From: a virus | IMG/VR virus record: IMGVR_UViG_3300025121_000023 | Span: 1-64,000 of that record | Reading direction: 5' to 3' (one strand) | DNA length: 64,000 nt | Part shown: positions 5,131 through 34,096 of the stretch, piece by piece | How positions within the stretch are numbered: the stretch's first letter is position 1 | Layout: each line of letters opens with the position of its first letter | The notes under the pieces: model-generated | What the model saw: the letters and a program-made list of their open reading frames with translations, nothing else | Databases searched by the model: none | What the model was told of the DNA's origin: nothing | Program-made: the position numbers and the translations under genes

Positions 5131-5146
5131 TGTTCCACGTGGAACT
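5131..5146. promoter_or_regulatory. parS-like centromere palindrome
   Basis: TGTTCCACGTGGAACT, 15/16 identical to the perfect copy at 34081; intergenic if the ORF starts at 5123. Confidence 0.75.
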
Positions 5147-5151
5147 TTTAT

Positions 5152-5607
5152 TTATTGTGGTTGTAATTCTAATAATGCTAAATCAGTAATAAGTAATTCT
5201 AAAGTTGGTAATAATTTTGCATTTAAAGATGCAAAAACTCTTTCGGAACCTCGATATATAACTAAATTATCTAATTTTAATACGGTTCTATGTAAACCAC
5301 CTACTGTTACATGCATAGTTATATTTAATCCTTGTAGTTCCAATGAAAATTGTGTCGTATCATATCCTATTTTTTCTACATCTATTACAGTTTTATATGT
5401 AAAATGTAATTTATTATTATATGCTACAATATTTGACACATTTTTATTTTTTTGATATGCTTTTACAAGATCATCAATAGTAACACCGTTATAAAATATT
5501 TTAAATTTTAAATCTTTATCATTATATAAATCACTTGTAATATTTGTATGATTACAAGAAGTAAATAACATTAAAAAAGGTAATACTAAATAAATTATTT
5601 TTTTCAT
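5152..5607 (-). CDS. putative lipoprotein
   Basis: MKK + hydrophobic stretch + FTSC lipobox. Confidence 0.7.
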   Translation of the reverse strand: MKKIIYLVLPFLMLFTSCNHTNITSDLYNDKDLKFKIFYNGVTIDDLVKAYQKNKNVSNIVAYNNKLHFTYKTVIDVEKIGYDTTQFSLELQGLNITMHVTVGGLHRTVLKLDNLVIYRGSERVFASLNAKLLPTLELLITDLALLELQPQ

Positions 5608-5872
5608 TTTTATAAATTTTAGTTATACATTATATTGCTTAATTTGTTCGTCAGTAAAAATCATTCTGAAGTCAGAACGTCTTAATCTTAAACGACCATA
5701 ATATTGCATTGCAATACCTATAATATCAGTTCTCCATCTTATTCTTAGTTCAGTATTTTGATCTTCAAGAATTGCGCACCCAATAGCATTAGTCAAAATT
5801 CTTTTTTGTTGATCTTCATCTAATTTTTTAAATTTTCTAATTATAGGCATAATTAAATGTTATTCATTAGCA

Positions 5873-5903
5873 CAAAGATACGAATAAATATATAATTTAC
5901 AAA
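5873..5903 (-). promoter_or_regulatory. Bacteroidota primary-sigma promoter
   Basis: TTTG-N19-TATCTTTG on minus strand. Confidence 0.75.
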
Positions 5904-5907
5904 ATTA

Positions 5908-6453
5908 TTACCAATAAATATTGAAAGTGCAAGATTCTCCACCCATTAAACGAGTTTCTTTTGATTTATCTAAATAAACACCATAATCAATAGTGTCTAA
6001 TGGTTTATATTTACGAAGCATATATGTAATTATTCCTCTATCAAAATCTGATGGATAAGGGTTTTTACAAATCATAATCGCTTTTCTATGTTTTTCATCA
6101 AATCTAGTTAATTCATAATGTCCTATATTACCACCTTTATGATTTAAATGATATGAAATATCTATACTTTTTAAAGCACCTTGTAAATCATTAAAACCAT
6201 TAGACCATAATGCAGTTTTTGGTATTAATTTACCTATTAAGAAAAGAGTTGTTGTACCAATAGTTTCGTACATTTCTTTAAACGCATTTAACCAATCTTG
6301 TTGACTATACCATTTATTAATTTCAGGATTTATATTATATTTATTTAATATTTGTATTCTTTTATCTTTATTAGATGATAATATATTAACTACAGATAAT
6401 ATAGCCTCACCAGTAACTTTAACATCTTTATCAAACGCAATAAATTGTGCCAT
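5908..6453 (-). CDS. V4R-like small ligand-binding protein
   Basis: CKNPYPSDFDRGII and GGESCTFNIYW resemble V4R/H-NOX-like folds. Confidence 0.5.
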   Translation of the reverse strand: MAQFIAFDKDVKVTGEAILSVVNILSSNKDKRIQILNKYNINPEINKWYSQQDWLNAFKEMYETIGTTTLFLIGKLIPKTALWSNGFNDLQGALKSIDISYHLNHKGGNIGHYELTRFDEKHRKAIMICKNPYPSDFDRGIITYMLRKYKPLDTIDYGVYLDKSKETRLMGGESCTFNIYW

Positions 6454-6525
6454 TAAAATTTAATTATTTTTTATCTGTTTATATATAAATTATACAAACT
6501 ACAAAAAGCTTACCATTATTGGTAA

Positions 6526-6921
6526 TTAGTTAAAACTTAACATTAATTTTATATATTCGTCAAAGAAATTTTGCACAGAACCTAATGGTTTGCCATTTTC
6601 ATTTAATAAAATTTCTACGGAAGTACCTTTACCTTTTGCGCTGAATATGATAGCCTTACAACCATCACATTCAACTAACCAAGCATAATTATTATATTCA
6701 TAACGAAACATAAAATCTTGTTTACCCCATAATTCTTTGAATTCGTCAACTTTAGAAGATACTATTTTAGACATTTTTATAATTTCTTCTTCGGATCTAC
6801 TATCATATATTTTTCTTGTATATTCGCGAAAGCAATTAAAATTATCTATTCGTTTAGTAGGTATTAAACTATTTTTATATTTAAGTCCAAATCCTAAAGG
6901 AGCAACAATTTTATTAATCAT
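6526..6921 (-). CDS. hypothetical protein
   Basis: 131 aa ORF. Confidence 0.6.
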   Translation of the reverse strand: MINKIVAPLGFGLKYKNSLIPTKRIDNFNCFREYTRKIYDSRSEEEIIKMSKIVSSKVDEFKELWGKQDFMFRYEYNNYAWLVECDGCKAIIFSAKGKGTSVEILLNENGKPLGSVQNFFDEYIKLMLSFN

Positions 6922-6986
6922 AGTATAATATTATTTTTCATTATATATTTATTTTAAAAATTACAAGTAGTTAAAAAAATAGAAAA

Positions 6987-7610
6987 TTAAATTATTTTAA
7001 CACCTAATTTTTTTAGTTCATCGATTATTTTAGGTTTATCATCATTATTTATAAATCGAATCGCATCTATGATAAAAGAAGTATCAAAATATTTAACAGC
7101 GTCTATTGCTGTATCTTTACAACAGTAATCTCCAGCCAATCCTGTAATGTGAACTTCTGTTACACCTTTCATTTGTAAAAATTCTAATAAACCATTTGAT
7201 TTATCAGGTAATCCACCAAATCCAGAATATGGATGAAAATTAGTATCTTCACCTTTACGGAAAATGAAGGTATTAGGAAGATCAAGATTTAAATCCTCGT
7301 GGAAACAGGCACCAACAGTATATTGAACACAATGATCAGGCCAAAGTGTATCTGTTAATCCATTTACTTCATAACTATCAAATGGATTTTTACCTGGATG
7401 TTGTGAAGCAAATGCTGTATGTTTACGCGGGTGCCAATCCATAGTGAATATAATAATATCATATCCACCTGATGCACCTAATTTATTTATTAATGGAATA
7501 ATTTTATCACCATCTTTTACTGCTAATGCACCACCTAATTTTTTTGCATAATCTTCAGGTGTAGCAGGCATAAAATCTTTTTGACAATCTACGTTTATTA
7601 ATGCTTTCAT
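6987..7610 (-). CDS. pncA: nicotinamidase/pyrazinamidase
   Basis: VDCQKDF, GGALAV, DWHP, WPDHCVQ, RKG, YSGF, GLAGDYCCKDTAID. Confidence 0.93.
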   Translation of the reverse strand: MKALINVDCQKDFMPATPEDYAKKLGGALAVKDGDKIIPLINKLGASGGYDIIIFTMDWHPRKHTAFASQHPGKNPFDSYEVNGLTDTLWPDHCVQYTVGACFHEDLNLDLPNTFIFRKGEDTNFHPYSGFGGLPDKSNGLLEFLQMKGVTEVHITGLAGDYCCKDTAIDAVKYFDTSFIIDAIRFINNDDKPKIIDELKKLGVKII

Positions 7611-8070
7611 ATTATTTGTTTTTAATTTATTTTTAAATTTATATTTTCGCGAGTATCTAAAATACTTTTAATAATTTCTAAATAAGCTTCCCAATTTTTA
7701 AATATTTGTTTACTATCGATTTCATTAGGATTACATTCATAATTTTTTAGATTTACATAAATATTTTTTATCATTTGATTTTCTACCACATTTACAAATG
7801 TAATCTGGATTTTTCTGCCTTTTTTTATTATTTTTTTTACATAATGTCTTTGCCATAATTATTTAATTTATTCTTCAAAACCAGCCATAAATAATAAATA
7901 GAATCCATATCCTACATAAGTTGATAATAATAATAATAATATAATTAAAAATAATGGGTTTAATAATATGAACCAAAATATTGTTAATATTTTACCTAAT
8001 TTATCTTTTAATAAAGTATTAGGTAAAAAGAATACCCAATTTAATATAAATTTGCTTAAATTTTCCATAT

Positions 8071-9135
8071 TTATTTTACCTTAATCAAATCATTAGCAAA
8101 ATATGCACTTACTCTATCTTCTTTTCCATACGGTTTGAAATATAGTTGCCCATCATCTTTTTTGTATATTTTATGTTCACCATCTTTTTGAACATCTACA
8201 ATATCACCTTCTTTTAATTCTACTTCAAATTTATCATAACATTTTACATATTTATCTGTATAAAGTTTATTTTTATAAATATAACTTAATACTTTAGGAT
8301 GTAACATAGTATCTATTGCTTTAAATCTACATAAATTATCATTTTTTGTTAAATGAAATCTTATATCAGTAGATGATATTTCATCAATACTATTATCATT
8401 TTTTAAAAAAATGTGTGGTGGTTTTAAATACCAAACAACATTTTCATTTCTTTCAATACCTTTTCTTGGAACAACAACAAATCTAACCATTCTTTCAAGT
8501 TCTTGAAAATTAACCCACTTATCAAAACTGTTAGCGTTGTCCAATCCAATTATCATACTGAAGTTATATTTTCCTTCATATTCGGATTCTTCTTTAAGTC
8601 TTTTAAATAAATTAAAAGTTTCACCTGCTAACTTATTTTTTATTTCAAAATCACATACTTTAATTCGACCATCAACTTCTGCTGCTAATTTACACATTTC
8701 TAATCTATCATCAGGTGATTCCATATGTTTTCCTAACATATGAGAGTATGCGGGCATTAGCCACACTTCATCAAACATACCAGATGTATTTAATACAAAT
8801 TTAGCAAGTTCAATATGTGAATTATGAATAGGGTTAAAAGCGCCACCTAGGATAGCTACTTTTACTTTTCTTCCTAATGTTTTATATTGTAATGTACGTT
8901 TATTTATTTTGGTAATAGTGTTTTCAATTAATTCTTCGGCATCCCATTCACTTTCATTACATAATTGTAATAAAGATGATAGTAAATCACCAGCTTCTTC
9001 TTTAAGGTTTTTTACATCTTGCCATTTAATTAATTCTAAAAATTCATTTTGAATATCTAAAAGACGTTCTGATAATGGAGTATATCCGAAGTTTTCTTTA
9101 AATACATTATTTATTTTATTTTGTATTTCTTTCAT
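8071..9135 (-). CDS. nadD: MazG-like NTP pyrophosphatase fused to nicotinate-nucleotide adenylyltransferase
   Basis: N-terminal ExxE...KEEAGDLL helical MazG-like motif; GGAFNPIHNSH (HxGH-like), IIGLDN, ISSTDIR of NadD; extra C-terminal tail. Confidence 0.88.
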   Translation of the reverse strand: MKEIQNKINNVFKENFGYTPLSERLLDIQNEFLELIKWQDVKNLKEEAGDLLSSLLQLCNESEWDAEELIENTITKINKRTLQYKTLGRKVKVAILGGAFNPIHNSHIELAKFVLNTSGMFDEVWLMPAYSHMLGKHMESPDDRLEMCKLAAEVDGRIKVCDFEIKNKLAGETFNLFKRLKEESEYEGKYNFSMIIGLDNANSFDKWVNFQELERMVRFVVVPRKGIERNENVVWYLKPPHIFLKNDNSIDEISSTDIRFHLTKNDNLCRFKAIDTMLHPKVLSYIYKNKLYTDKYVKCYDKFEVELKEGDIVDVQKDGEHKIYKKDDGQLYFKPYGKEDRVSAYFANDLIKVK

Positions 9136-9190
9136 ATATTTATAATTTTCATTAAAGATAATAAAAATAATCGTTTTAACCTAATTAATT

Positions 9191-9592
9191 TTAAAGCGTC
9201 CAAAAATTACCATACATATTTATATTATGATTTGATGTTATTCCTTTTTGCACGAATATATTCCAATTTTTACTCCAGGAATTAAGACAAAGATATAAAT
9301 CTTTTAAATATTTATATCTTTCAAATTCAGTATCAAAATTACATTTTATTTTATGTTCAGGTTTTAAAAAAGATTTTTCAGGAATTACAAAAGTTTTAGA
9401 ATATATTTCACCATTATCAAACGAGTATAATTTAAATCCATTTTCATCAGAATAATATACATTTTTATATTCATCAATAGAATCATATAAAAAATCATTA
9501 TCCCAAAAGTGAATTATTATTTCTAATGTATTATGTTTATTATATAATATAAATTCTAATATAAATTTATTCATTTTTTCATTACCGTTCAT
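9191..9592 (-). CDS. hypothetical protein, 'ERY' paralogue family
   Basis: FDTEFERYKYLKDLY...W motif shared with 40129, 40517, 51666. Confidence 0.65.
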   Translation of the reverse strand: MNGNEKMNKFILEFILYNKHNTLEIIIHFWDNDFLYDSIDEYKNVYYSDENGFKLYSFDNGEIYSKTFVIPEKSFLKPEHKIKCNFDTEFERYKYLKDLYLCLNSWSKNWNIFVQKGITSNHNINMYGNFWTL

Positions 9593-9798
9593 TTACCTAT
9601 GAACTTTGATTATCGTTATATATTTCAATTTCGTCTTTTGTCATTGGAATAACCTTAAACATGAATGTCGCAGAACCTTGCTGTTTTATAAATGTCCAAC
9701 ATTCTTTTTCAGTTCCACTAAAACATTCTTGTTCCTCATCTACAGTATAAAGCAAATCTAATACTTTGTGTGTTTTCATATTTAATTTTTTTTTGTTA

Positions 9799-10515
9799 TT
9801 ATGCTACTTTTATAAATTGTTTAACAACTCCTGCAAAAATATCAGTTTTAAATACTTCAAGAACTTTTATAGTTATTTTTTTTCCTTTTGTTCTTTGTGC
9901 CTTTCCATTAATAACAGGCATAATGTATGGATACAATCCACTAACTTCTTTTCCATCAATACAAACAACACTTAATTCTATATAATTAAATATCGCATCT
10001 GTACATACATCATTATCATAAGAAATAAAACCATTTCTTGTAAATTCAATTTCAACAACATCATCTACTTTTAGTAAATTCTTGCTGTTAATTTCATCCT
10101 GTTTTGCTTTTTCGATTGCTTCAAAATGAGCAATATATTTTGGGTGATTAATAATGAATTTTGAAGTTTGTCCACCATAATTATTTGCACACCATAGGCA
10201 ATATTGAAAATCAATTTCTATCACTTCGTCAATTAATTTACCTGCATATTTACCACTCCAAAAATAACCTTCTGGTAAATCAAGTTTTTCATTACGAGTA
10301 AAAGAACTTGTACCTCTTAATTCAATATCGATTTCCACACCAGGATATAATGATTTTACTTTATTAATATCAGTAGAAACATTCTTAATGTAATAATACT
10401 TATGATCAACACCTGTTTGATGATGATTACCATAACTATCAGTTCGATATTGTTTTACTGCTTCATAATCCCAAAGGGTGTAAAATTGTGTAGCGAATCC
10501 AATTATTTTTTTCAT
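9799..10515 (-). CDS. hypothetical phage protein
   Basis: 238 aa ORF; FWSGKYAGK...YCLW resembles the FGKYKG...YLxW (DUF3820-like) motif. Confidence 0.6.
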   Translation of the reverse strand: MKKIIGFATQFYTLWDYEAVKQYRTDSYGNHHQTGVDHKYYYIKNVSTDINKVKSLYPGVEIDIELRGTSSFTRNEKLDLPEGYFWSGKYAGKLIDEVIEIDFQYCLWCANNYGGQTSKFIINHPKYIAHFEAIEKAKQDEINSKNLLKVDDVVEIEFTRNGFISYDNDVCTDAIFNYIELSVVCIDGKEVSGLYPYIMPVINGKAQRTKGKKITIKVLEVFKTDIFAGVVKQFIKVA

Positions 10516-10643
10516 AATTTAGGATATTAATTATTCTGTAAAAGTAATACAAATAATTGTATTTTGCAAATATTTACTAATTCGTTTTTGGACCAATCAT
10601 AAGTTGCTAATTATTAATACATAAAATTAATAAAAAACAATAT

Positions 10644-10967
10644 TTAATCAAAGAAATCTTTTCTACGATCTATTACTTCTAATCTATCAACATACTTTTT
10701 AAGAATATCACCATGACAAAGTTCATTAGGGGTTGTATTAGTTTTACAAACACATCCAAGACGTTTATATTTTAATTCAGACAAAGAATTTAATAAATCT
10801 TCATTATTTAGCAAATATTTTTCAAATAATACTATTGCTTGTTTTCTATTATCCACTTTAAATTGTGCAAGTGTATTTTCTTTATGTGAATATGGATTAG
10901 ACCATTTTGAAGGACGGGTTATATCAATATCATATGAATCAGTATATTTATTTACAACTTCACACAT
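10644..10967 (-). CDS. DUF4326-like protein
   Basis: ITRPSKWSNPY...LGCVC...CHGDIL. Confidence 0.8.
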   Translation of the reverse strand: MCEVVNKYTDSYDIDITRPSKWSNPYSHKENTLAQFKVDNRKQAIVLFEKYLLNNEDLLNSLSELKYKRLGCVCKTNTTPNELCHGDILKKYVDRLEVIDRRKDFFD

Positions 10968-10968
10968 T

Positions 10969-11337
10969 TTATTTTGAACTACTTTGTACCGATTTTTGAA
11001 CTAAAATAATATATTCCAAGAATGTTATAGGTATTTTGGATTCTTTAAAATTATCATCATACTTTAGAAGAAATAAATTACCTTCTTCGTCAATATCAGC
11101 AATAACATCATTACCATTTATATGATTTCTAAAATTAAGATTACCTGTACCGTTACTATATGTTTTTATTTCTAAATTTTCAATCATTCGAAATTTATCT
11201 TTTAATAAATTACCAATAATTTTTTCTTTTTCATATTTATCCTTTTTTTCTTTTTCTTTTTCTTTTTCCTTACTTAAAAAAAAGTTTAGTGGTTCATAAT
11301 AACCATTATCAAATGATCCTTCCCATATTTGTGACAT
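10969..11337 (-). CDS. hypothetical protein
   Basis: 122 aa ORF. Confidence 0.55.
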   Translation of the reverse strand: MSQIWEGSFDNGYYEPLNFFLSKEKEKEKEKKDKYEKEKIIGNLLKDKFRMIENLEIKTYSNGTGNLNFRNHINGNDVIADIDEEGNLFLLKYDDNFKESKIPITFLEYIILVQKSVQSSSK

Positions 11338-11373
11338 AATTTCTATTTTATATATTTTAAATAATTTGTAGTA

Positions 11374-11751
11374 TTAATGTTTTTCAATCATAAATGTATA
11401 AGCCCAATTTTGTTTATAATCACACACCGGACAAACCCAACCATCTTTTGTTGCTATTAATGCTGTGCTATTAAAAGGTGTTTCTGGATAATTAATACCC
11501 CTTGCTATTTCTTTTTTCAAATATTCATCATAGTTTTCTCCTTTATGTTTTTTTTCAAACTCGAATTTTATATGAATATCATCACCTTGGTTTTGACAAG
11601 TAAACTCGTGAAATTTTCCACTAACTTGATAATTATTTAAATTCTTAACTTGTTCATCAGTAAATGGTGATTTAATATATTTTCCTATATTATCTTTAAC
11701 TCTCAAAATTTGATTATATTTTTCGAGAGTTGACTTTGATTTTGTATTCAT
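11374..11751 (-). CDS. hypothetical zinc-ribbon protein
   Basis: HEFTC...GWVCPVCDYKQNWA. Confidence 0.6.
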   Translation of the reverse strand: MNTKSKSTLEKYNQILRVKDNIGKYIKSPFTDEQVKNLNNYQVSGKFHEFTCQNQGDDIHIKFEFEKKHKGENYDEYLKKEIARGINYPETPFNSTALIATKDGWVCPVCDYKQNWAYTFMIEKH

Positions 11752-11831
11752 AATCAGGTATTTAATTATTTAAGTTTATATATAATAGTTATAAAACATT
11801 AAAACGATTTTATAACAAAGTATAAATTCAA

Positions 11832-12005
11832 TTAAAAATTATATTTAACTATTCTACTTTTTAAGAACTTCGTGATTTTCCTTGAACAAAATAATTGTTC
11901 AAACCAGTTTAGTTCCATTATAAACTTTTCAGCATCTATATACCTTTCCGTAAGTTGTTCCATTTTGTTCAATGAAAATTCTGCAATATTTTTTGTATTT
12001 TCCAT
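11832..12005 (-). CDS. small protein encoded inside the loop of attC-like hairpin 1
   Basis: ATG at 12005 just inside the right arm; stop lies in the left arm. Confidence 0.6.
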   Translation of the reverse strand: MENTKNIAEFSLNKMEQLTERYIDAEKFIMELNWFEQLFCSRKITKFLKSRIVKYNF

Positions 12006-12049
12006 ATTATAATTTTTAACTAAATTTATACTCAACCGTTATAGGGCAT

Positions 12050-12232
12050 TTAATCCCACGGATTCTCACCAGTAATTTCGACAAACACATCCTTTAATTG
12101 CTTTACTTTTTCGGGCAAAGCAATACTAAGTTGTTCAACGTGCATTTGTGGTGGCAACGGCATCTTTAATGAGTGTGCAAGGTTGTCAAGCGAATCAATC
12201 AACTGACCAAGTGTTTCAAATTTATCTTCCAT
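12050..12232 (-). CDS. small cassette protein (MEDKFETL...)
   Basis: ATG at 12232; lies wholly between GTTATAGGGC and GCCCTATAAC. Confidence 0.65.
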   Translation of the reverse strand: MEDKFETLGQLIDSLDNLAHSLKMPLPPQMHVEQLSIALPEKVKQLKDVFVEITGENPWD

Positions 12233-12381
12233 TGTAATTAAAATAAACGCCCTATAACAACAAGTATAGCAAAGCAGGGGCGTGTTCTGTATGCTATCTG
12301 AGTGCATCTAATTTACTTCATCACGGCTCGACAGGTTAGCACTCTAAATCCCTGCCTTGCTATACTTGCAGCCGTTAGCAA

Positions 12382-12651
12382 CTATAATTTGCTTTTAAAT
12401 TCATCTACTAATTTAGTTTTGTACTCATCAGTAAATTTCATCTCGAATTTATCGGCATACCAAGTAATAAAAGCAAATAACAGTTCACTTCGTTTGCTAA
12501 CACATTGTATATCCAAATTTTTAACAAAAGTTAGTATGTTATTTTCAATTCCTAGCGTTTCACAAACTCTGTCATAAGCATCTGCCTTTGGTCGAACTTC
12601 TGTAATTAATTTTATCAGTTCTTTCTTTTTTAATTGTTCTAATGTTTTCAT
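12382..12651 (-). CDS. cassette-junction protein (...DIQC|VSKRSELL...)
   Basis: starts in a hairpin loop and reads through arm and GTT (Val) junction. Confidence 0.7.
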   Translation of the reverse strand: MKTLEQLKKKELIKLITEVRPKADAYDRVCETLGIENNILTFVKNLDIQCVSKRSELLFAFITWYADKFEMKFTDEYKTKLVDEFKSKL

Positions 12652-12693
12652 CTCTTTTATTTTTTGTTAAAAATCAGTATATACAATCATACG

Positions 12694-12951
12694 TTAGCGG
12701 TCATTGCCGTAACACTCTTGTTTATATTGTTCCAATTTATCATACAGTACTTTAAATTGTGGTTGACCGTTATCAATTAGCCAATCAATAAAATGGTAAG
12801 TTGGGTTTATATATTTGCGAATTTTATCACCCATTGTATCAGGCAACGAACCGCTAACACCCAATAAATCCAATAAAAGCTTTCGTGCTTTATTGTCAGT
12901 TATAGTGCCTTGTTCAAGGTCTTGTGCTATTTTTGAAAGTTCTGTTTTCAT
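12694..12951 (-). CDS. cassette-junction protein (...DLLG|VSGSL...)
   Basis: starts in a hairpin loop, reads through GTT junction, stop TAA is part of the next TAAC core. Confidence 0.7.
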   Translation of the reverse strand: MKTELSKIAQDLEQGTITDNKARKLLLDLLGVSGSLPDTMGDKIRKYINPTYHFIDWLIDNGQPQFKVLYDKLEQYKQECYGNDR

Positions 12952-12992
12952 AATCTTTTACTGTGTTTATTTTTAAAGTTAGAAGTAATAAA

Positions 12993-13277
12993 TCAAACTA
13001 CCATAGTGAAACTATCAGAAATCCAATTATCACCAACATATATTTCACTATCGAGTCCGTCAAATTCAACAATATTCGTACAGGTATAAATTTTATCTTC
13101 TTCCCAAAATTTACTATCTCTCATAATTTGTGTTGGTAATTTGACTTTGAATTTCTGACTTATTTTCGTAACCTTACCGTTTAATTTACTACTTCTAATA
13201 TCAGATATACTCAAGTTTTCTTGATATTCATTGAAACTTTGTATGTATTTATTATCTTTATTCTTCAACGTATTCAT
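12993..13277 (-). CDS. cassette-junction protein with KYIQSFNE leader (...ENLSISD|IRSS...)
   Basis: junction ATTAGAAGTA pairs with TACTTCTAAC on the minus strand at 12987-12978. Confidence 0.65.
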   Translation of the reverse strand: MNTLKNKDNKYIQSFNEYQENLSISDIRSSKLNGKVTKISQKFKVKLPTQIMRDSKFWEEDKIYTCTNIVEFDGLDSEIYVGDNWISDSFTMVV

Positions 13278-13279
13278 TT

Positions 13280-13969: not shown

Positions 13970-13981
13970 ATTATTAAAATA

Positions 13982-14347: not shown

Positions 14348-14354
14348 TTTTAAA

Positions 14355-15203: not shown

Positions 15204-15237
15204 AATTTATCACTTTAATTATTGTTCATGTGATATT

Positions 15238-16197: not shown

Positions 16198-16226
16198 ATT
16201 ACATAAGTTTTAATTATTTACTTATA

Positions 16227-16317: not shown

Positions 16318-18747
16318 TTATGTGCTACTTTCATTAGCAGCTTCTAAACTTAATAGTTTTTGTTTTACTGAAAAATCTAATTCATCTTCAGTTTTAGATT
16401 TTGTCACTAAAATATGATCACCACTTTTGATGTCTTTAGTAATAATTCTGATGGAAATTTCATCTTGAATATATTTTTGAATTGCTCTTTTTAATGGTCT
16501 TGCTCCCATTTCAGCATCCCAACCTTTTTCAAGAATAAAATCCATTGAACTTTCATTCAATTCCATTGTAAGATTATTTTCAGATAATCTTTGATAGAAT
16601 TTACTTAATTCAATATTAATAATTGATTTAATGCTATTTTTTTCTAATGAATCGAAATATACCGTTTCATCAATTCTGTTAAGGAATTCTGGTGAAAATT
16701 TCTTTTTCAATTGTTTTTCGACAACAGCTTTAGATGAAGTTTTTTTATCAACACTAAAACCAACACCACCAATTTTTGATTCTCTTGAACCAACATTAGA
16801 AGTCATAATAATAACAGTATTTTTAAAATTAACTGTTCTACCTTTACTGTCAGTTAAAACACCATCATCAAATACTTGAAGAAGAATATTATATACATCA
16901 GTATGTGCTTTTTCTATTTCATCAAGAAGAATAATAGAATATGGTTTATTTTTAACAGCATCGGTTAATTGTCCACCTTCATCGTGTCCAATGTATCCAG
17001 GAGGTGCTCCAATTAATCTTGATACAGTATGTTTTTCCATATATTCACTCATATCGATACGTATCATATTATCTTCACTATTGAATAATAATTTTGTTAA
17101 TTCTTTAGCTAAATAAGTTTTACCAACACCAGTTGGTCCTAAGAATAAGAATGTTCCAATAGGTTTTTTAGTATCATTAAGACCTGCTTTATTTCTAAAA
17201 ATACATTTAGCAATTTTTTCAACAGCATTATCTTGTCCAACAATAACTGATTTAAGACTAGGAATCAAATTTGTAAGTTTTTCAGTATCATCATTTGAAA
17301 TATTTTCAGATGGAATACCAGTCATAACAGATATAACATTTGCTACATCTTCAACAGTTACTTCTTTCAGATTTTCTAATCTATTTTTATGAACATCATT
17401 TTTAATTTCATCGATTTCTGCTTGAATCATATCTTGTTTTTTCTTTAATTCCGCAGCTTCTTCAAATAATTGTTCTTTAACACTTGCGTCTTTTTTTGCA
17501 ATTATTTCAGAAAGTAAATTTTCTTTTTCAAGTAAATCAAAAGGAAGTCCAAGTTGAATTCTAACAGCGGCACCAACTTCATCTAAAGCATCAATTGCTT
17601 TATCAGGAAAATTACGATCAGTAATATAACGTTCAGATAATTTTAAACAAGCTTTAAGAACATCATCAGAATAACTAACCATGTGGTGTTTTTCATATTT
17701 AGGTCTTAAATTTAAAAGAATTTGATATGTTTCTTCTCTTGTAGGTTCAGATACCCTAATTTTTTGAAATCTACGATCAAGAGCACTATCTTTTTCGATT
17801 TTTTTATATTCTTTATTAGTCGTTGAACCGATACAACTAATTTCCCCCCTAGAAAGAGCTGGTTTAAGAATATTAGCAGCATCTAATGATCCACTAGCAC
17901 CACCCGCACCGACCATTGTATGAATTTCATCAATATAAAGAATTATATCATCTGATTCTTTTAATTCATCAACGATTTTTTTCATTCTTTCTTCGAATTC
18001 ACCACGATATTTAGTACCAGCAACAATAGAATTTAAATCTATTGATATAATTCTTTTATCATGTAATATATCTGGTGTTATTTTTTTAACAATGTCTTGG
18101 GCTAATCCTTCAACAATTGCTGTTTTACCAACCCCCGCTTCACCAATTAAAATTGGATTATTTTTCTTTCTACGTGAAAGAATTTGGGCAATACGTATTA
18201 ATTCTTTTTCTCTTCCAACAACAGGATCTAATTTATCATTAGCTGCTAATTCAGTTAAATCCGTGCCATACTCATCTAAAAGAGGAGTTTTAGTTTTTTT
18301 ATTAACTTTTGATTTTCCAGTTTCTTTTGGTTTTTCCATTTCAATCATTTTTAAGTAAATTTTTTCGAGTTCGTCATATCCTATGACATTAATTAATTTT
18401 GATCTTGTCATAGATAAAACTAAATGTTCAGTCCTAATGATATTAGAATTAAATTTAGTTGATTCTAATTCAGACTGTTTCATAATATTTTCAGCTTCTA
18501 ATGTTAATCTAGCTTTAATAAAATCTCTAGTATCTTCTTCAAGATCAATTTTTTTTGCATTATTAGAATATAAATCTAATAATTTTTCTTTCGCATCTTT
18601 TGTATCAATGATTTTTTTAAGTAACTTATAACCACCACTATTTTCATTTAATAATATACCTAATAATAAATGATTAGGCTCAATTATATTATTAGAGTAT
18701 TGTTTTGCAATGGTTAAAACACTTTTGAAATTTGATGAATATGCCAT
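16318..18747 (-). CDS. clpC: ATP-dependent Clp protease ATPase subunit (ClpC)
   Basis: Clp-N repeats, two AAA+ modules (GEAGVGKT, GPTGVGKT), UVR-like middle domain, VGF ClpP-docking loop, GARPLKR. Confidence 0.95.
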   Translation of the reverse strand: MAYSSNFKSVLTIAKQYSNNIIEPNHLLLGILLNENSGGYKLLKKIIDTKDAKEKLLDLYSNNAKKIDLEEDTRDFIKARLTLEAENIMKQSELESTKFNSNIIRTEHLVLSMTRSKLINVIGYDELEKIYLKMIEMEKPKETGKSKVNKKTKTPLLDEYGTDLTELAANDKLDPVVGREKELIRIAQILSRRKKNNPILIGEAGVGKTAIVEGLAQDIVKKITPDILHDKRIISIDLNSIVAGTKYRGEFEERMKKIVDELKESDDIILYIDEIHTMVGAGGASGSLDAANILKPALSRGEISCIGSTTNKEYKKIEKDSALDRRFQKIRVSEPTREETYQILLNLRPKYEKHHMVSYSDDVLKACLKLSERYITDRNFPDKAIDALDEVGAAVRIQLGLPFDLLEKENLLSEIIAKKDASVKEQLFEEAAELKKKQDMIQAEIDEIKNDVHKNRLENLKEVTVEDVANVISVMTGIPSENISNDDTEKLTNLIPSLKSVIVGQDNAVEKIAKCIFRNKAGLNDTKKPIGTFLFLGPTGVGKTYLAKELTKLLFNSEDNMIRIDMSEYMEKHTVSRLIGAPPGYIGHDEGGQLTDAVKNKPYSIILLDEIEKAHTDVYNILLQVFDDGVLTDSKGRTVNFKNTVIIMTSNVGSRESKIGGVGFSVDKKTSSKAVVEKQLKKKFSPEFLNRIDETVYFDSLEKNSIKSIINIELSKFYQRLSENNLTMELNESSMDFILEKGWDAEMGARPLKRAIQKYIQDEISIRIITKDIKSGDHILVTKSKTEDELDFSVKQKLLSLEAANESST

Positions 18748-23819: not shown

Positions 23820-23821
23820 GT

Positions 23822-24673: not shown

Positions 24674-24752
24674 AAAATTTAAGGTTTTTTTAATTTTCAG
24701 TTTAACGTATATTTAAGTAATACATTATATATTAAAAAATTAAAAAAGTTTA

Positions 24753-24792
24753 AAAAAAACGAACAATTTTTTTAAATTGTTCGTTTTTTTTT
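24753..24792. terminator. intrinsic terminator
   Basis: AAAAAAAACGAACAATTT/AAATTGTTCGTTTTTTTT. Confidence 0.8.
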
Positions 24793-24812
24793 ATAATTAT
24801 AAAAATTAATGA

Positions 24813-27089: not shown

Positions 27090-27132
27090 TGTTTATGTTT
27101 TTTAAAATTTATATTAAGTTTACTATTATATA

Positions 27133-27163
27133 CAAATATAACAATTTTTATATCAAAAACAAA
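27133..27163 (-). promoter_or_regulatory. Bacteroidota primary-sigma promoter
   Basis: TTTG-N19-TATATTTG. Confidence 0.7.
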
Positions 27164-27736
27164 TTATATTGTACTTTTTTTATTTGGTATTTTAACTATT
27201 TTTTTTCCAACATTTTCAATAAGTTCTTCTATTGAAATAGGTTTATAGTTTAATAATTCAACACCCACATTTACAGATCTTCCTGGATTTTTCATATCAA
27301 AATCAATTGAATTATTATGAGTATGTCCATGTACGTGAATAGAACCTTTCCACATTCTATTCCAAGAATATATAGGATAATGAAATAAAATCATATCATA
27401 TATTTCATTTTTATATTCATATGGAAATCTATAATAATCTTTAACCCATTCAAATCTATCTTTAAATCTATCAATAAGTTTAATTTTATCGTGATTTCCA
27501 TTAATTAAATAGATTTTTCCATTTAATCTTTCTAAAATTTCTCCAAACAATCGAGGATTAATTTTATAAGACATATCACCTAAGTGATATACTTCATCAT
27601 CTTCACCTACTACAGAATTCCACATTTCAATCATATATTCATTCATTTCATGAATACTTTCAAATGGTCTTTGTGTATTCTTTATAATTCCACCATGACC
27701 CCAATGATGATCTGCTATTAAATATTTCATATACAA
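27164..27736 (-). CDS. calcineurin-like metallophosphoesterase
   Basis: ADHHWGH, HLGD, GNHD, HYP, HGHTH, NVGVE. Confidence 0.9.
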   Translation of the reverse strand: MYMKYLIADHHWGHGGIIKNTQRPFESIHEMNEYMIEMWNSVVGEDDEVYHLGDMSYKINPRLFGEILERLNGKIYLINGNHDKIKLIDRFKDRFEWVKDYYRFPYEYKNEIYDMILFHYPIYSWNRMWKGSIHVHGHTHNNSIDFDMKNPGRSVNVGVELLNYKPISIEELIENVGKKIVKIPNKKSTI

Positions 27737-27794
27737 ATATAATTTAAAAATTTCAATTAAAAAAATTAATCAAAATAAATTTAATATATACTAT

Positions 27795-28451
27795 ATGAAA
27801 TATATTCAAAAGTTTGAAAAATTTAATATAAATAGTGATTATTTTTTATTAAGAAAAATAATTAAAGATGTTAAATTAGATTTTTATAGTATATTAAAAT
27901 ATCAATTAGCTATAATAAATATCAATTTAATTATATCAAAATTAATAAATAATGAATCAAATTATAATACACTTTTATTAACTATCTGTGCAATATCTAT
28001 ACTCACTAGGGAAAATAAAGATAAAATTAAAACGTTATTTAATTTTGCATTAGAAAAAGGAATTACAGAAGAAGAAATAAATGATGTTATTAATAAAATA
28101 AATCTGTTATTGGAATTATTTACTTCAGTTGCTAAACAATTTGATAAAAATATTTCAACAGTAAATAAAATGATACGTAATATATCCATTCTAATACCTT
28201 TTTTAAGCGTTTTAAAGGACTTAATTAATAATGAACTAGTAGATGTTCAATGGTTTAATAATGGTTCAGATAATCTTAAAAAAAGTATAGGGCTAGATAA
28301 ATATAAAAGAATCATTGAACGATTAATGCATAAAATAATAATAATAATAAGTTCAACTGATAAATTTCAGAATGTAGAAAATGTTAAACCTTTATTAGCA
28401 CAGGATGAATTAAAATCTCCTATGTACAAAAAAATTAAACCATATATTTAA
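27795..28451 (+). CDS. hypothetical protein with capsid-targeting-like N-terminus
   Basis: MKYIQKFEKF; TTAATATATA immediately upstream. Confidence 0.65.
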   Translation: MKYIQKFEKFNINSDYFLLRKIIKDVKLDFYSILKYQLAIININLIISKLINNESNYNTLLLTICAISILTRENKDKIKTLFNFALEKGITEEEINDVINKINLLLELFTSVAKQFDKNISTVNKMIRNISILIPFLSVLKDLINNELVDVQWFNNGSDNLKKSIGLDKYKRIIERLMHKIIIIISSTDKFQNVENVKPLLAQDELKSPMYKKIKPYI

Positions 28452-28453
28452 AA

Positions 28454-28720
28454 ATGAAACATCTTAAAAAATTTGAAAATTATATTCAAAAGTCAGAAAA
28501 TTATAAAAGTTTAGTTAATGAATTTTATGATGAAACAGAACTAATATATAAAACTACAGAACAGATAATAAGGGAAGATATTAAAAAATATTTAAAATAT
28601 AATTATTCAGATACATATATTGAAGCAGCATTATACGGAAAATATAAATATGCTTATTCAATGGAAGATATTAATTCATTAATAGAAGAAGAAAGAAGAA
28701 ATATGGATTTGGTGGATTAA
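28454..28720 (+). CDS. hypothetical protein with capsid-targeting-like N-terminus
   Basis: MKHLKKFENY. Confidence 0.65.
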   Translation: MKHLKKFENYIQKSENYKSLVNEFYDETELIYKTTEQIIREDIKKYLKYNYSDTYIEAALYGKYKYAYSMEDINSLIEEERRNMDLVD

Positions 28721-28739
28721 ATTATTATTCGTATCTTTG
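28708..28739 (+). promoter_or_regulatory. Bacteroidota primary-sigma promoter
   Basis: TTTG-N20-TATCTTTG ahead of small plus-strand ORFs. Confidence 0.75.
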
Positions 28740-29240
28740 TGGTGAATTTAAAATAAATATTATGGAACTTACTGTTCTATATAAAAAACTAAATAATTTA
28801 TTAGACTTATAGGAACGTAGGGATTTAACAACCAAAGAAGAAATTGAATTAAATAAGCTTAAAAAACAAAGAAATAAACAAGATCCAGATTGGTTTTTAA
28901 AACTTTAATTAAAAATATTATGAAAATAAAACATCAAGCTCCACATATAGATAAAATAAAACATTTAGATGTTGAAGATAGAAAATCTATTAAAAGTTAT
29001 AATAATACCCGAAAACGTAAAATTAGAAAACTTAAAAAAGTAGAAAAATAAAATGGAAGAAAAAAATATTAATTTTTGGGATGAATTAGATAGAAAATTT
29101 AGAAGATTACAAAAACTTCTTGAATGGAAAATTGATGGACAATTTCAACACGGAATTGCACCTGGTTTGTACCCTTCTTTAACACCTGAAAGAATAGAAA
29201 AATTATATAATGTGAGTTTTGGTAATTAAAAATTATAAAT

Positions 29241-29495
29241 ATGGAAAATTCAGATATTCAAAAATTAGCGGAAGAATTAAAAAAAGGAGAAAAAAAAGAA
29301 GATCCCTTTATTTCTAAAAACGTATGGCTTAATCGAATAGGTCTTATAATTTTAGTTGCTGGAATGTTTCCAGAATTATTGAATTTATATTCACACGAAT
29401 TTTATCAAATATTTAGATGGTGTGTTTATTTAGCTGCCGCAACCTGGATATTTAAAATTATTAAATCAGAAATCAAATCATTTTGGAACTCATAA
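29241..29495 (+). CDS. small two-TM membrane protein
   Basis: two hydrophobic segments. Confidence 0.6.
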   Translation: MENSDIQKLAEELKKGEKKEDPFISKNVWLNRIGLIILVAGMFPELLNLYSHEFYQIFRWCVYLAAATWIFKIIKSEIKSFWNS

Positions 29496-29539
29496 AGTAG
29501 GGATTTATATTTGAAATATGATCTACCCCGATCCCTATG

Positions 29540-29565
29540 AAAAGTCGCTCAACAGCGGCTTTTTT
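29540..29565 (+). terminator. intrinsic terminator between convergent units
   Basis: AAAAGTCGCT-CAAC-AGCGGCTTTTTT. Confidence 0.75.
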
Positions 29566-29715
29566 ATTTTTTATACCATTTTGTAATTTGATTACTTTCT
29601 ACAAATCCTATTTTTTCAACAAAATTCATAGCTATGTCATCTTCTATATGACAACACAATTCAGTACAATTCCATTCTGGATGTATATTTATTATGTGAT
29701 TTACTATTTTTTTCC

Positions 29716-29979
29716 CTATTCCTTTTTTTCTGTATTGATTTTTCTGTATTGATCATCTATACATATTAATTCTATATATCCCCACGTAAAATGATTAAAA
29801 TACAAAATAAATCCTGTAATTTTCATATCAGTAATATGAACATATGAACTATTATTTTCTATATATTTTTCAAAATCATATGATGTATTTTTTACTTCTT
29901 TTATCATATTTTTAATTGTAATCTGATTGTATAAATAAAGAATATCAGGTATATCATTAATATTTGATTTTCTAATCAT
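29716..29979 (-). CDS. GNAT acetyltransferase-like fragment
   Basis: MIRKSNINDIPDI...ITGFIL...YIELICIDDQYRK; stops just at motif A, possibly truncated. Confidence 0.55.
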   Translation of the reverse strand: MIRKSNINDIPDILYLYNQITIKNMIKEVKNTSYDFEKYIENNSSYVHITDMKITGFILYFNHFTWGYIELICIDDQYRKINTEKKE

Positions 29980-29983
29980 TAAT

Positions 29984-30358
29984 CTATTGCAATATTTTTT
30001 TTATTTTTTTCTCCCTTAGAAATATTTTAACATCATCATAATATTGAATATGAGTTGCAACTATATTAAATTTAACTTTATAATTTAAATTATTAATAGT
30101 ATAAGATTCTATAATAGGATTTTTAAACACGATAATTAAATCTTCACCGATTAATTGAATTTCATCAGTAGATTTATCTATATTAAATTTTACATATAAT
30201 TCAGTAATATAATTTATAACAGAAGTAGATGAATAACAATCAATTACTAAGTTATTTTTTATTCTATTTTTTGAGTAAGCATATCCATCTTCAAATTTAG
30301 CATTTTCTAATTCTACAATTTTATCATTACATATTAATAAAGTTATATTAGGTTCCAA
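29984..30358 (-). CDS. hypothetical protein with RxxKIxxI C-terminal tag
   Basis: FLREKKIKKILQ. Confidence 0.55.
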   Translation of the reverse strand: MEPNITLLICNDKIVELENAKFEDGYAYSKNRIKNNLVIDCYSSTSVINYITELYVKFNIDKSTDEIQLIGEDLIIVFKNPIIESYTINNLNYKVKFNIVATHIQYYDDVKIFLREKKIKKILQ

Positions 30359-30457
30359 AAAATAATAATTCTTTTTTAAGATATATTTTAAAAAGAAATT
30401 AAAGTTTAATATATAAAGAAAAATGAATATTAATAAATGAAAAAGATTATAATATTA

Positions 30458-31561
30458 TTAATTATTTTTATTTAAAAAATCTTTCCAACCTTTCCAACCC
30501 CTATCTTTTTTATTATAATAATTTTCTGGATGATTTGGTATAATTTCTGGTATTTTATTATTTTTGGCATTCAACATCCATTCTTTTTTGCTTTTGATAT
30601 TAATTTTTTCTTTAATATATTTTTTAGATTCTTCATATGATATATAATTTTCAGCTATTTTATTATCTCGAACTTTATTAGTTCCTAAAAAATCACCCAT
30701 ACTAATCCACCCATTATTTTTATATGTTGAAGATGGTGTTAAAGGTATATTTAAATTTTCTATAACTTTTTTATTATATTTTCTCCATTCCGATCTACTT
30801 TTAATATTTAATGGTTTAATAAGTTTTTTAGCTTCTTCATATGAAACAAAATTTTTATTTTTATGTGCTAATCTGTTAGTTCCTAAAAAATCACCCCAAC
30901 TAACCCATCCTCTATTTTTATTAGCATAAAATCTATCTGGTCTATTTGGAATAGTTTCTGGTATTTCATTATTTTTTAGTTTCATTTTCCATTCTTCAAT
31001 AGTATTAGCTATTATATAATTTTTAATATAATTCTTAGCTTCATTGTATGATATATATTTTTCTACTATTTTGTTATCTTGAATTTTATTGGTCCCTAAA
31101 AAATCCCCCCAACTAATCCAACCATTATTTTTAAATGTTATATTAGGGTTAAATGGTAAATTATATTTATTTTTAATATTTTTATGATTTTTTTCCCAAT
31201 CGTTTCCACTTTTAATATTTAAACGATGTGCTATTTTTTTTGCATCTTCATAAGAAATTGTATATAATAATCCGTGACCTCCATCACCACCACCAGTATG
31301 ATTAGTTAAATTCGGTAATTTTTTAATCCAATATTTTTCTTTTTCTATCCAATCATTATTATTACATTTTTCTAATATTTTAATTTTTATTTGATTACCT
31401 TTTTTCAATTCTTTTCGTATCCAATTATGTTTATATGTTTTACAATTTCTAATAGTATCACTTAAATGTTCATATAATCTCTTTTCTAAATTATTAGTTT
31501 TTCCGACATATCGTATATCATTATCCATATTAGTATACAACCCATAAATATACATTGTCAT
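30458..31561 (-). CDS. GIY-YIG homing endonuclease with four tandem repeats (integrase-repeat-like)
   Basis: YIYGL...RYVGKT...RLYEH; 4x SYEEAK...IP..P...GWxSWGDFLG. Confidence 0.88.
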   Translation of the reverse strand: MTMYIYGLYTNMDNDIRYVGKTNNLEKRLYEHLSDTIRNCKTYKHNWIRKELKKGNQIKIKILEKCNNNDWIEKEKYWIKKLPNLTNHTGGGDGGHGLLYTISYEDAKKIAHRLNIKSGNDWEKNHKNIKNKYNLPFNPNITFKNNGWISWGDFLGTNKIQDNKIVEKYISYNEAKNYIKNYIIANTIEEWKMKLKNNEIPETIPNRPDRFYANKNRGWVSWGDFLGTNRLAHKNKNFVSYEEAKKLIKPLNIKSRSEWRKYNKKVIENLNIPLTPSSTYKNNGWISMGDFLGTNKVRDNKIAENYISYEESKKYIKEKINIKSKKEWMLNAKNNKIPEIIPNHPENYYNKKDRGWKGWKDFLNKNN

Positions 31562-31597
31562 AATTATTTTGATTTGTTTATACTGGTATATATAAAA

Positions 31598-31634
31598 ATA
31601 AAAAGCCCACTTTATATAAAGCGGGCTTTTTATT
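31598..31634. terminator. intrinsic terminator after clpP
   Basis: AAAAGCCC...GGGCTTTT hairpin. Confidence 0.75.
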
Positions 31635-31649
31635 TAAATTAATTATATT

Positions 31650-32381
31650 TTAATTACCTTCTTCACCAATAATTGTGTCAATTGCTCCTTTTTCACCATA
31701 TTCTTTTGCTTCAAATGAAGTCAACCAAAAATCTCGTTCTGCATCAATTTTAACTTGTTCTAATGATTGCCCACATTTGTCAGCAATAATTCCATTAGTT
31801 TCTTCTTTAAATCTTTGAATCTGTTTATATCTAATTCCGATATCTGTTGCTTGTGAATGACCTATTGTAGCAAGAGGTTGATGCAACATTAAACGACTAT
31901 GTTTTAAAGCTGATCTTTTAATGCCATTGATAGATAAAATAAATGCCATACTAGCTGCCATTCCAGTCACAAGTGTATTAACATCTGGTTTAATGAAATC
32001 CATAGTGTCAAATATTGAGTATCCAGCTACAATCGAACCTCCTCCTGAGTTAATATACAAGTCAATTGGTTTTTCGCTATCTTGAGATGCTAGGAACAAT
32101 AATTGAGCAGTAACGATATTACTAACAGTATCATCTATTCCTGTTCCAAGGAAAATTATACGGTCTATCATCAATCTACTGAACACATCCAACTGTGTTA
32201 TGTTCATTGGTCTTTCCTCGATAATTGAAGGGTTAATATGACCAGAAACTCTAGCTCTATTCTGTATATCTAGGTGGTCATATGCTTTATTTTGGAAATC
32301 TATATAATCACCCATAGCTATTCCACTAATACCTTTATCTTTACGAAAAAGGTTAAAGTCGTGTTCGAAATTTTCTCTCAT
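31650..32381 (-). CDS. clpP: ATP-dependent Clp protease proteolytic subunit
   Basis: DVFSRLMIDRIIFLG, YINSGGG, GMAASMA, MLHQP, ERDFWL. Confidence 0.95.
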   Translation of the reverse strand: MRENFEHDFNLFRKDKGISGIAMGDYIDFQNKAYDHLDIQNRARVSGHINPSIIEERPMNITQLDVFSRLMIDRIIFLGTGIDDTVSNIVTAQLLFLASQDSEKPIDLYINSGGGSIVAGYSIFDTMDFIKPDVNTLVTGMAASMAFILSINGIKRSALKHSRLMLHQPLATIGHSQATDIGIRYKQIQRFKEETNGIIADKCGQSLEQVKIDAERDFWLTSFEAKEYGEKGAIDTIIGEEGN

Positions 32382-32479
32382 AATTAGTTTAATTTAAGTT
32401 AATACTGTTATTTGTCTATTTTAATAATTAACATCTAAGATAGTAATTTTTTTTTAATTTACAAAAAAAATCACTTTAT

Positions 32480-33565
32480 TTAACATTTAAAATTATTTTG
32501 TTTAGATAATTTTTCTAATAATTCTTTTTCTTTATCTGTTATTTCATTAGGAACACCAACACTTATATAGATTAATTCATCACCTAATGTTCCTCCTTGA
32601 TCTGATAAACCTTTTTTCTTTAATCTTAATACTTCACCATTTTTAGTATGAGGTTTAATATTTATTATAGCCTCATTATCTAATGTTGGAATATTAATTT
32701 TTCCACCTAAGATAATTTTAGTTATTGGTAATTCTAATTTATAAATTATATTATTACCACTTCTTTCAAAATGTTTATGTTTAATTACATTTACAAATAC
32801 TATTAAATCACCGTTAATACCGTTATTTCCTGGTCGTTCAGGTGCATGTCCTTTATTATGAACTTGAAATTTACTTCCATCTTCAACACCTTTTGGTATT
32901 TTAATAACTAATTCTGTTTCAGAATTTTCAACTCCATTTCCATTGCATTTTTTACAAGAATTTATTATAATTATTCCTAATCCTTTACATTGATCACAAG
33001 TAGTTGTAGTTGACATAGTTCCTATTGGTGTATGTCTAGTTACCTGTATAATACCGTTTCCATTACATTTAGAACATTGTTTAGTATCACCACCAAATCC
33101 ATCACAACTTGAACAACCGATATTTCTATTATATTTAACAGTTTTTTCTAAACCATCTCTGACATTTATTAAAGTCAAATCTATTTTAATTTGAATATTT
33201 TGTCCTTTAAATTTTCTTTGACCACTTCTATTATTTCCACCAAACCCACCAAATGTATTAAATATATCATTTATATTAAATCCACCACCAAATGGTTGAC
33301 TACCAAATCCACTAAACCCACCGAATCCACCACTACCAAAAGGATTTCCTTCTGCTGTTCCGTATTGATCAAAATTACTTCGTTTATTATCATCTGATAA
33401 TATTTCATATGCTTCTGATACTTCTTTGAATTTTTCTTCTGCTTCTGGATTATTTGGATTTTTATCAGGATGATATTGAACAGCTTTTTTTCTATAAGCT
33501 TTTTTTATTTCATCTTTAGTTGCAGTTTTATCTATATCTAGTATATTGTAATAATCTTTTGCCAT
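32480..33565 (-). CDS. dnaJ: chaperone DnaJ
   Basis: J domain with HPD, G/F region, four CxxCxGxG repeats, C-terminal domain. Confidence 0.96.
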
Positions 33566-33589
33566 TGTTTATATTGTTTTAAAAAAATT

Positions 33590-33697
33590 GGTAGATAAAA
33601 AATAATCCCGATAATATTCTCCATTAAGAAGTTTGACCGTTGCAATTGCGGTATTTATCATGTTATACTTCTAAACAACTTTTCTTTTTTATCTACC
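33590..33697 (-). ncRNA. candidate structured leader RNA of dnaJ
   Basis: 13-bp closing stem GGTAGATAAAAAA/TTTTTTATCTACC with nested AGAAGT/ACTTCT and ACCG/CGGT stems. Confidence 0.45.
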
Positions 33698-33710
33698 TTA
33701 CTTTTGGTAT

Positions 33711-33751
33711 GTCAAATATAATACCAATTTACATTATATGCTATTTTGTCA
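33711..33751 (-). promoter_or_regulatory. sigma54-like promoter with upstream TGWCAAAAT box, dnaJ
   Basis: TGACAAAATAGCA-N11-TTGGTATTATATTTGAC; core 15/17 identical to the clpC element. Confidence 0.6.
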
Positions 33752-33777
33752 GTTTTGTTTATAATTTTTAATATATA

Positions 33778-34068
33778 TTAATTGTATTTAAGTATTTCTT
33801 TTATATCTTCAGGATATTTATTTTCAGCAATAATATATTTATTAAATGCATTTAAACTAGTTACACCTAACATTTCATCATTATCACTATAAACAGTAAT
33901 TTCAAAACAAGTTATAATATATTTTACACCTTTATAACTAAGATCATATTGTAATTTTGTACAATCATCATATAAATTTTCAAAGGTAGTTATTTTACCT
34001 TTTCTCATAGTTATTATACTATTAGGTATATTTTTTGTTTCACCGACTATTTTTAATAAATAATACAT
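33778..34068 (-). CDS. hypothetical protein
   Basis: 96 aa ORF. Confidence 0.55.
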   Translation of the reverse strand: MYYLLKIVGETKNIPNSIITMRKGKITTFENLYDDCTKLQYDLSYKGVKYIITCFEITVYSDNDEMLGVTSLNAFNKYIIAENKYPEDIKEILKYN

Positions 34069-34080
34069 TTCATATTTTTT

Positions 34081-34096
34081 TGTTCCACGTGGAACA
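34081..34096. promoter_or_regulatory. parS-like centromere palindrome
   Basis: perfect TGTTCCACGTGGAACA in a 29-bp intergenic gap. Confidence 0.8.

Follow-up and report, generated by a model that had tools for sequence, protein, structure and literature searches.

The Bacillus phage phi29 carries five host-type parS sites for the host protein Spo0J and exploits the segregation machinery of its host for entrapment in spores (PMC2731898). As quoted in that article, host-type parS read by Spo0J/ParB was described for the virulent Bacillus phages phi29 and Nf (Meijer et al. 2005, via PMC2731898). The integrative mobilisable element SGI1 carries the parS of its IncC helper plasmid (PMC10954446). 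Here, we analysed 64,000 nucleotides of viral DNA (the window), which constitute the first 64 kb of the complete IMG/VR record IMGVR_UViG_3300025121_000023 (112,560 bp; G000), and describe dispersed 16-bp palindromes which, judged by their sequence, are genuine chromosomal-type parS sites. They recur on sister contigs, one of which encodes a Soj-type ParA.

Palindromes in the window and in the complete record

An initial annotation, made from the letters of the window alone, had reported two GC-rich parS sites in gaps shorter than 30 bp within very AT-rich DNA, the second of them a perfect palindrome. Both were found again at the same coordinates:

5131–5146, intergenic: parS site 1, TGTTCCACGTGGAACT, 15/16 match to the consensus, with a perfect 14-bp palindrome at 5132–5145
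34081–34096, intergenic: parS site 2, TGTTCCACGTGGAACA, 16/16 match to the consensus, a perfect 16-bp palindrome

The gap around site 1 measures 28 nucleotides (nt) (5124–5151, from the stop of the open reading frame (ORF) at 5152–5607 to the ATG at 5123) and that around site 2 measures 29 nt (34069–34097, from the stop of the ORF at 34098–34409 to the ATG at 34068); the end of site 2 sits 1 nt ahead of the stop codon of the upstream gene. All flanking ORFs are co-directional on the minus strand, and the background GC content of the window is 20–27%, which bears out the short gaps and the very AT-rich background of the earlier description. With up to three mismatches permitted, sites 1 and 2 were the sole matches in the window; 100 dinucleotide-preserving shuffles yielded a mean of 0.08 matches, and none of the 100 contained two or more.

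G000 (23.1% GC) was rated 23% complete by CheckV, which implies a genome of roughly 0.5 Mb. Beyond the window it contains two more perfect 16-mers, at 82432–82447 (site 3) and 100609–100624 (site 4). The initial annotation had proposed a genome-wide count; this record holds four exact 14-bp cores in 112.6 kb, three of them with the full 16-mer, at a spacing of 18–48 kb. The 10-bp core is the most enriched palindrome of G000 (727-fold over base composition), and the motif is its only dispersed repeat apart from paralogue and tandem arrays. Site 4 lies within an ORF of 388 amino acids (aa). The same ORF holds a 6- to 36-nt tandem repeat of the CTTTTCAACTTC type (100696–100990), at a distance of about 80 nt from site 4.

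G000 is a phage and not a cellular chromosome, an option that the initial annotation had kept in view, because it encodes a phage DNA polymerase along with a structural protein of the virion, of a kind known from T4-like cyanophages, consists mostly of ORFans and has huge-phage relatives. Its coding share is 90% under the standard code, and it carries multicopy homing-endonuclease-like genes. Genes of cellular type are present as well (ClpB, DnaJ, PncB, a NadD-MazG fusion and a radical-SAM protein), and no tRNA genes were found within the window. Chance, an assembly artefact or cellular contamination as the origin of the palindromes is effectively excluded: base composition predicts about 2 × 10⁻⁶ copies of the 16-mer in G000 against the three perfect copies and one 15/16 copy found, the surroundings are unique phage ORFans, the contig itself encodes a phage DNA polymerase and virion proteins, and independent contigs carry such sites, too.

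Distribution among related huge phages

A search with a multicopy protein of 548 aa led to 79 loci from related huge phages of low GC content, 1.26 Mb in all. Among these, the motif occurred on only three contigs, all from sample 3300025121:

G001, sister contig, 84 kb, 22.6% GC: two perfect sites, 29.8 kb apart
G006, sister contig, 54 kb: two perfect sites, 9.1 kb apart
3300025121_000014 (L143): one perfect site in the part read (about 52 kb of 233 kb)

Together with G000, the sublineage has at least nine sites, spaced about 9–48 kb. More distant relatives (about 1.2 Mb, including two complete genomes) contained zero copies, so the trait is recent and confined to one sublineage. GTTNCACGTGNAAC was absent from the whole records of five further relatives, two of which are rated 100% complete (243 kb and 325 kb). 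The conservation in relatives on which the initial annotation had made its reading depend thus holds for the closest contigs (G001, G006 and 3300025121_000014) and fails for the more distant ones. IMG/VR queries for close relatives with DnaJ and PncB returned matches of 25–28% identity or none.

G000 and G001 have no collinear region and share only multicopy families; their composition is similar (23.1% vs 22.6% GC, tetranucleotide r = 0.94). They are either pieces of one genome or pieces of sister genomes.

Identity of the motif

The chromosomal parS consensus TGTTNCACGTGNAACA has four palindromic forms, and the 16-mer is one of them. Only 4 of the 65,536 possible 16-bp palindromes (about 6 × 10⁻⁵) fit this consensus, which makes recognition by an unrelated regulator unlikely. 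The best matches of the ClpB protein (46–49% identity) are mostly from Bacteroidota, and the host of the sublineage is probably a member of this phylum. In the five Bacteroidota genomes checked for it, the consensus forms small clusters: in Maribacter, two copies of the identical 16-mer lie within 1.9 kb of each other, and Flavobacterium has a cluster of a T/C variant. The exact 16-mer was present in 5 of 81 sampled Bacteroidota genomes with one to two copies per 2.7–4.8 Mb, often paired within 50–1900 bp, and a reversed palindrome of the same composition (ACAAGGTGCACCTTGT), used as control, in none of the 81. Going by the consensus, the Bacteroidota 16-mers are likely to be the functional parS of those genomes. 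These comparisons, which the initial annotation had suggested, sustain its assignment of the motif to the chromosomal ParB site consensus, as does the fact that conservation stops at the 16-bp boundary. The phage sites are about 70-fold denser (about 35 per Mb vs about 0.5 per Mb in hosts with this variant); at distances of 18–48 kb in G000, which is a genome fragment, 29.8 kb in G001 and 9.1 kb in G006, they do not form a cluster of the origin-proximal kind.

Across the nine copies, sequence conservation ends exactly at the borders of the 16-mer, and no degenerate copies exist alongside them. Six of the nine are intergenic, either in 28–30-nt gaps between co-directional genes or beside canonical terminators (binomial P about 6 × 10⁻⁵, given 90% coding DNA), and the remaining three lie within ORFs, all in the same frame, encoding VPRGT. 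At 82433, G000 reads NVPRGTVDIQKILTFD where more distant relatives read ...TESNGEVTIKKLFTYD, which suggests that the DNA motif may have been written into a tolerant protein segment, although we give this short similarity little weight. The placement of site 3 in a split prohead-protease gene was considered and rejected, as the similarity is local (27 residues only) and the upstream ORF is unrelated.

Positions in short intergenic gaps or next to terminators are also compatible with an element outside the ParB system, i.e., the operator of an unrelated dimeric phage regulator or an RNA hairpin (5–7 bp stem, ACGU loop) for the control of mRNA processing or translation. As RNA, the motif indeed folds into a hairpin of 5–7 bp with −6 to −10 kcal/mol (z about −2). 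However, the coding (minus) strand has no U-tract as expected of an intrinsic terminator, and the sole terminator-like call falls on the non-coding strand at site 1. There is zero compensatory variation in stem or loop among the nine copies, so that conservation acts on the sequence rather than on the structure, and a terminator or hairpin was rejected on these grounds. Taken together with the copies inside ORFs, the poor chance of a random fit to the consensus and the Soj-type ParA that accompanies the sites (see below), we regard any such element as highly unlikely.

Partition proteins

The initial annotation had found neither parA nor parB in the window. This was upheld for the window and for all of G000 by searches with PF02195 in six frames, a scan for deviant Walker A motifs and custom ParA and ParB profiles. 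It had further proposed to search the phage for ParB, and we extended this search to the sublineage using PF02195 in six frames (covering G000, G001–G006, G008 and G010), a tblastn query with the ParB of Maribacter and a profile built over the full length of four ParB proteins from Bacteroidota, which as a positive control detected 22 ParB-bearing viral loci. No ParB was found in G000, G001, G006 and the read parts of 3300025121_000014 (about 300 kb, of which about 190 kb are sister contigs). A scan of IMG/VR with a Bacteroidota ParB alignment, for which only two peptide patterns were used, returned no contig of the lineage.

A gene for a partition ATPase was present on the sister contig G001:

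G001 56690–57463 (= L139:16690–17463), minus strand: Soj-type ParA, 257 aa, with KGGVGKT; AAA_31 at 2.6e-67

The protein is full length and has the deviant Walker A (KGGxGK[ST]), A′ and B motifs. It is 62% identical to Maribacter Soj over its full length and 55–65% identical to the ParA of 399 out of 401 Bacteroidota genomes, keeps 114 of the 134 positions at which four ParA proteins from Bacteroidota do not vary, and has chromosomal ParA/Soj proteins as its closest solved relatives. The two parS sites of the contig flank the gene at 13–16 kb to either side. No parB adjoins it: the downstream ORFs (46 aa and 201 aa) are ORFans without ParB domain or family match, so that G001 lacks the parA-parB operon of a complete ParABS system. 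The 201-aa ORFan is a possible adaptor. Five parS-less relatives, including two complete genomes, encode neither ParA nor ParB; ParA and parS thus co-occur, within a single lineage.

Partition genes usually travel together, and a phage that owns a ParA might also own the matching ParB. In such a complete phage ParABS, a parB in the part of the genome that was not sampled (about 40–75%) would read the sites together with the phage ParA, as in the parABS systems of P1, N15 and mycobacteriophages, and host ParB would be irrelevant or a competitor. The low completeness of G000 and the partial reading of the 233-kb contig leave room for such a gene. Yet parB normally lies directly downstream of parA, where G001 has the two ORFans, and neither Pfam, custom profile nor tblastn found a ParB in the DNA searched; the IMG/VR scan with its two peptide patterns points the same way. 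We therefore consider a complete phage system rather unlikely.

Proposed function of the sites

The interpretation that we favor, and consider probable, is that the parS sites are docking sites for ParB, read most likely by the ParB of the host, with the phage ParA positioning or partitioning the genome. A canonical ParB dimer would recognize each palindrome, close as a clamp dependent on cytidine triphosphate (CTP) and spread onto the flanking phage DNA. The ParB would most likely be supplied by the host, because no phage parB was found and the parA of the sublineage has no adjoining parB. The Soj-type ParA encoded by the sublineage, as seen on G001, would then act on the ParB-parS complexes, and phage genomes may thereby be positioned or partitioned in a still-growing host, e.g., in a carrier or pseudolysogenic state. 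The direct observations are the sites, with a number and placement that are not random and a sequence identical to parS of the host phylum, the joint occurrence of ParA with parS, and the absence of ParB from the DNA examined. That ParB binds, where it comes from and what it does for the phage are what we infer. The initial annotation had already proposed that the phage may load host ParB (and SMC) to position or segregate its genome. No phage ParB was found in the DNA searched, and the Soj-type ParA on the sister contig fits a role in positioning or segregation.

In a more specific version, which we put forward tentatively as a possibility, this would be a split partition system: the phage contributes the parS sites and its own Soj-type ParA, the host contributes ParB as the adaptor, and a genome of about 0.5 Mb would be positioned and inherited like a low-copy replicon, allowing a carrier state without integration in dividing, non-sporulating Bacteroidota.

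The initial annotation had also raised titration. Here, many parS on replicating phage DNA would act as a sponge and draw ParB, the loading of SMC and the control of ParA away from the host origin, deranging host segregation, replication control or division in favor of the phage. The high density of the sites compared with hosts that have this variant and their dispersed, not centromere-like arrangement agree with this, as does the finite supply of ParB per cell, known in general for ParB-CTP clamps. A sponge, however, requires no ParA, yet ParA accompanies parS in this sublineage only, and we judge this alternative distinctly unlikely as the role of the sites. Apart from that argument, the sequence evidence does not separate partition from titration. 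That nine copies are perfect and none is degenerate suggests that efficient loading of the clamp was selected for, as either model would permit.

Several points weigh against a partition role with host ParB. The record is only about 23% complete, and a phage parB could lie in the unsampled DNA. The ParA sits on another contig that is not joined to G000 by assembly; the two appear to be linked by sample lineage, GC content and tetranucleotide correlation (r = 0.94), and by the multicopy families and the motif that they have in common. The sites are dispersed and not clustered near an origin, unlike chromosomal centromeres. The exact variant occurs in only 6% of the sampled Bacteroidota, and a Bacteroidota host is itself only probable. 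Finally, relatives of the DnaJ encoded next to site 2 (44–49% identity) in Joint Genome Institute (JGI) metagenomes had no site nearby, i.e., conservation is shallow.

If host ParB does load onto the sites, a huge, lytic-looking phage would have a built-in route to persistence and inheritance in growing cells. This would bear on the survival of megaphages in slow-growing natural hosts and on the frequency with which carrier states are encoded genetically. The strategy of phi29 would then reach beyond spore-forming hosts, and, with the phage Soj, virus and host would share a naturally occurring ParABS system between them. Two handles for host prediction are also available, namely the exact variant of parS and the ParA with its 62–65% identity.

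Neighboring genes and further features

The genes flanking sites 1 and 2 match no family in Pfam or PHROGs and have no functional link to the sites:

4788–5123, minus strand: ORFan, 111 aa, ATG 8 nt past the 14-bp core of site 1
5152–5607, minus strand: ORFan, 151 aa, no family match, its stop precedes site 1
33778–34068, minus strand: ORFan, 96 aa, ATG 13 nt past the core of site 2
34098–34409, minus strand: ORFan, 103 aa, upstream of site 2, with a 34%-identical paralogue at 34450–34749

Several other genes of the window could be assigned:

773–2422: DUF2201 metallopeptidase/VWA-like protein
3545–4723 and 8071–9135: nicotinate phosphoribosyltransferase (PncB) and a MazG-cytidylyltransferase (NadD/NMNAT-like) fusion, i.e., genes for the salvage of nicotinamide adenine dinucleotide (NAD)
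16318–18747: full-length ClpB disaggregase
30458–31561: GIY-YIG endonuclease
32480–33565: type I DnaJ (J domain, Zn finger, C-terminal domain), adjoining site 2
35461–36675: radical-SAM protein
38169–40144: five to six paralogous genes in tandem, coding for about 90 aa each, with near-identical 5′ and 3′ blocks that show as 12-mers recurring about every 250 bp
56545–57744: OrfB/TnpB homologue
63437–64000, continuing to 65143: SbcC/Rad50-like ATPase of 568 aa (AAA_23, SMC_N, SbcC Walker B)

The SbcC/Rad50-like ATPase is probably a recombination nuclease subunit of the T4 gp46 type, and nothing ties it to parS. Together with an Hsp20 on G001 (51575–52012), ClpB and DnaJ resemble a chaperone set. 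G001 also contains, inside the phage contig, an IS605-family OrfB/TnpB gene (52178–53374) with a Cas12f-like TNB domain; the homologue in the window is less similar (38.6% identity). In G000, a multicopy family (about 530 aa; phrog_3339/phrog_559, homing or HNH endonuclease by annotation) has copies at 74154–75800, 82986–84581 and 104588–106129; in relatives (L142–L220) its copies lie at contig ends, and they are probably repeats that break these huge-phage assemblies.

Comparison with known systems

The perfect 16-mer was found in at least 205 viral loci of IMG/VR (L010–L129, L223–L307), compared with three for the reversed control (L416–L418), and several loci have two to three sites inside about 2 kb (e.g., L238, L262, L258). 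ParA and ParB profiles had no match in the 1.8 Mb around the at least 205 loci. Orphan host-type parS may thus be a common, largely unstudied phage trait, or IMG/VR may hold host flanks and misclassified DNA at these loci; we treat the census as a lead only. In the literature we found nothing specific on host-type parS in jumbo phages.

With Bacteroidota chromosomal ParABS, the sublineage shares the identical 16-mer and a ParA of the same length and 55–65% identity. The chromosomes combine a parAB operon with one to four clustered, origin-proximal sites, whereas in the phage parA is an orphan and the sites are scattered and about 70 times as dense. P1, N15 and the actinobacteriophage parABS systems likewise combine a Walker-type ParA with centromere sites on a phage genome, and in N15 these sites are dispersed as well. 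They have their own ParB and element-specific centromeres, however, in contrast to the universal chromosomal parS without detected ParB described here. SGI1 is similar in being a mobile element with the cis site only, which borrows the ParAB of another replicon for its stability, but it is not a phage, hijacks a plasmid instead of a chromosomal system and encodes no ParA.

In phi29, a lytic-type phage without parB bears several copies of the 16-bp parS of its host; here, four sites occur without a ParB in 112.6 kb of an incomplete genome. The principle of host-type parS on a virulent phage is therefore already known. phi29, though, has a genome of 19 kb, infects a spore-former and is trapped in the spore, while the present sublineage, known from sequence alone, comprises huge phages (112 kb or more of sequence, genome size put at about 0.5 Mb) with a probable non-sporulating Bacteroidota host, sites every 9–48 kb and its own Soj-type ParA. 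What is new is the occurrence of such sites in a huge phage with a more than 20 times larger genome and a probable non-sporulating Bacteroidota host, their dispersed arrangement and the presence of a phage Soj.

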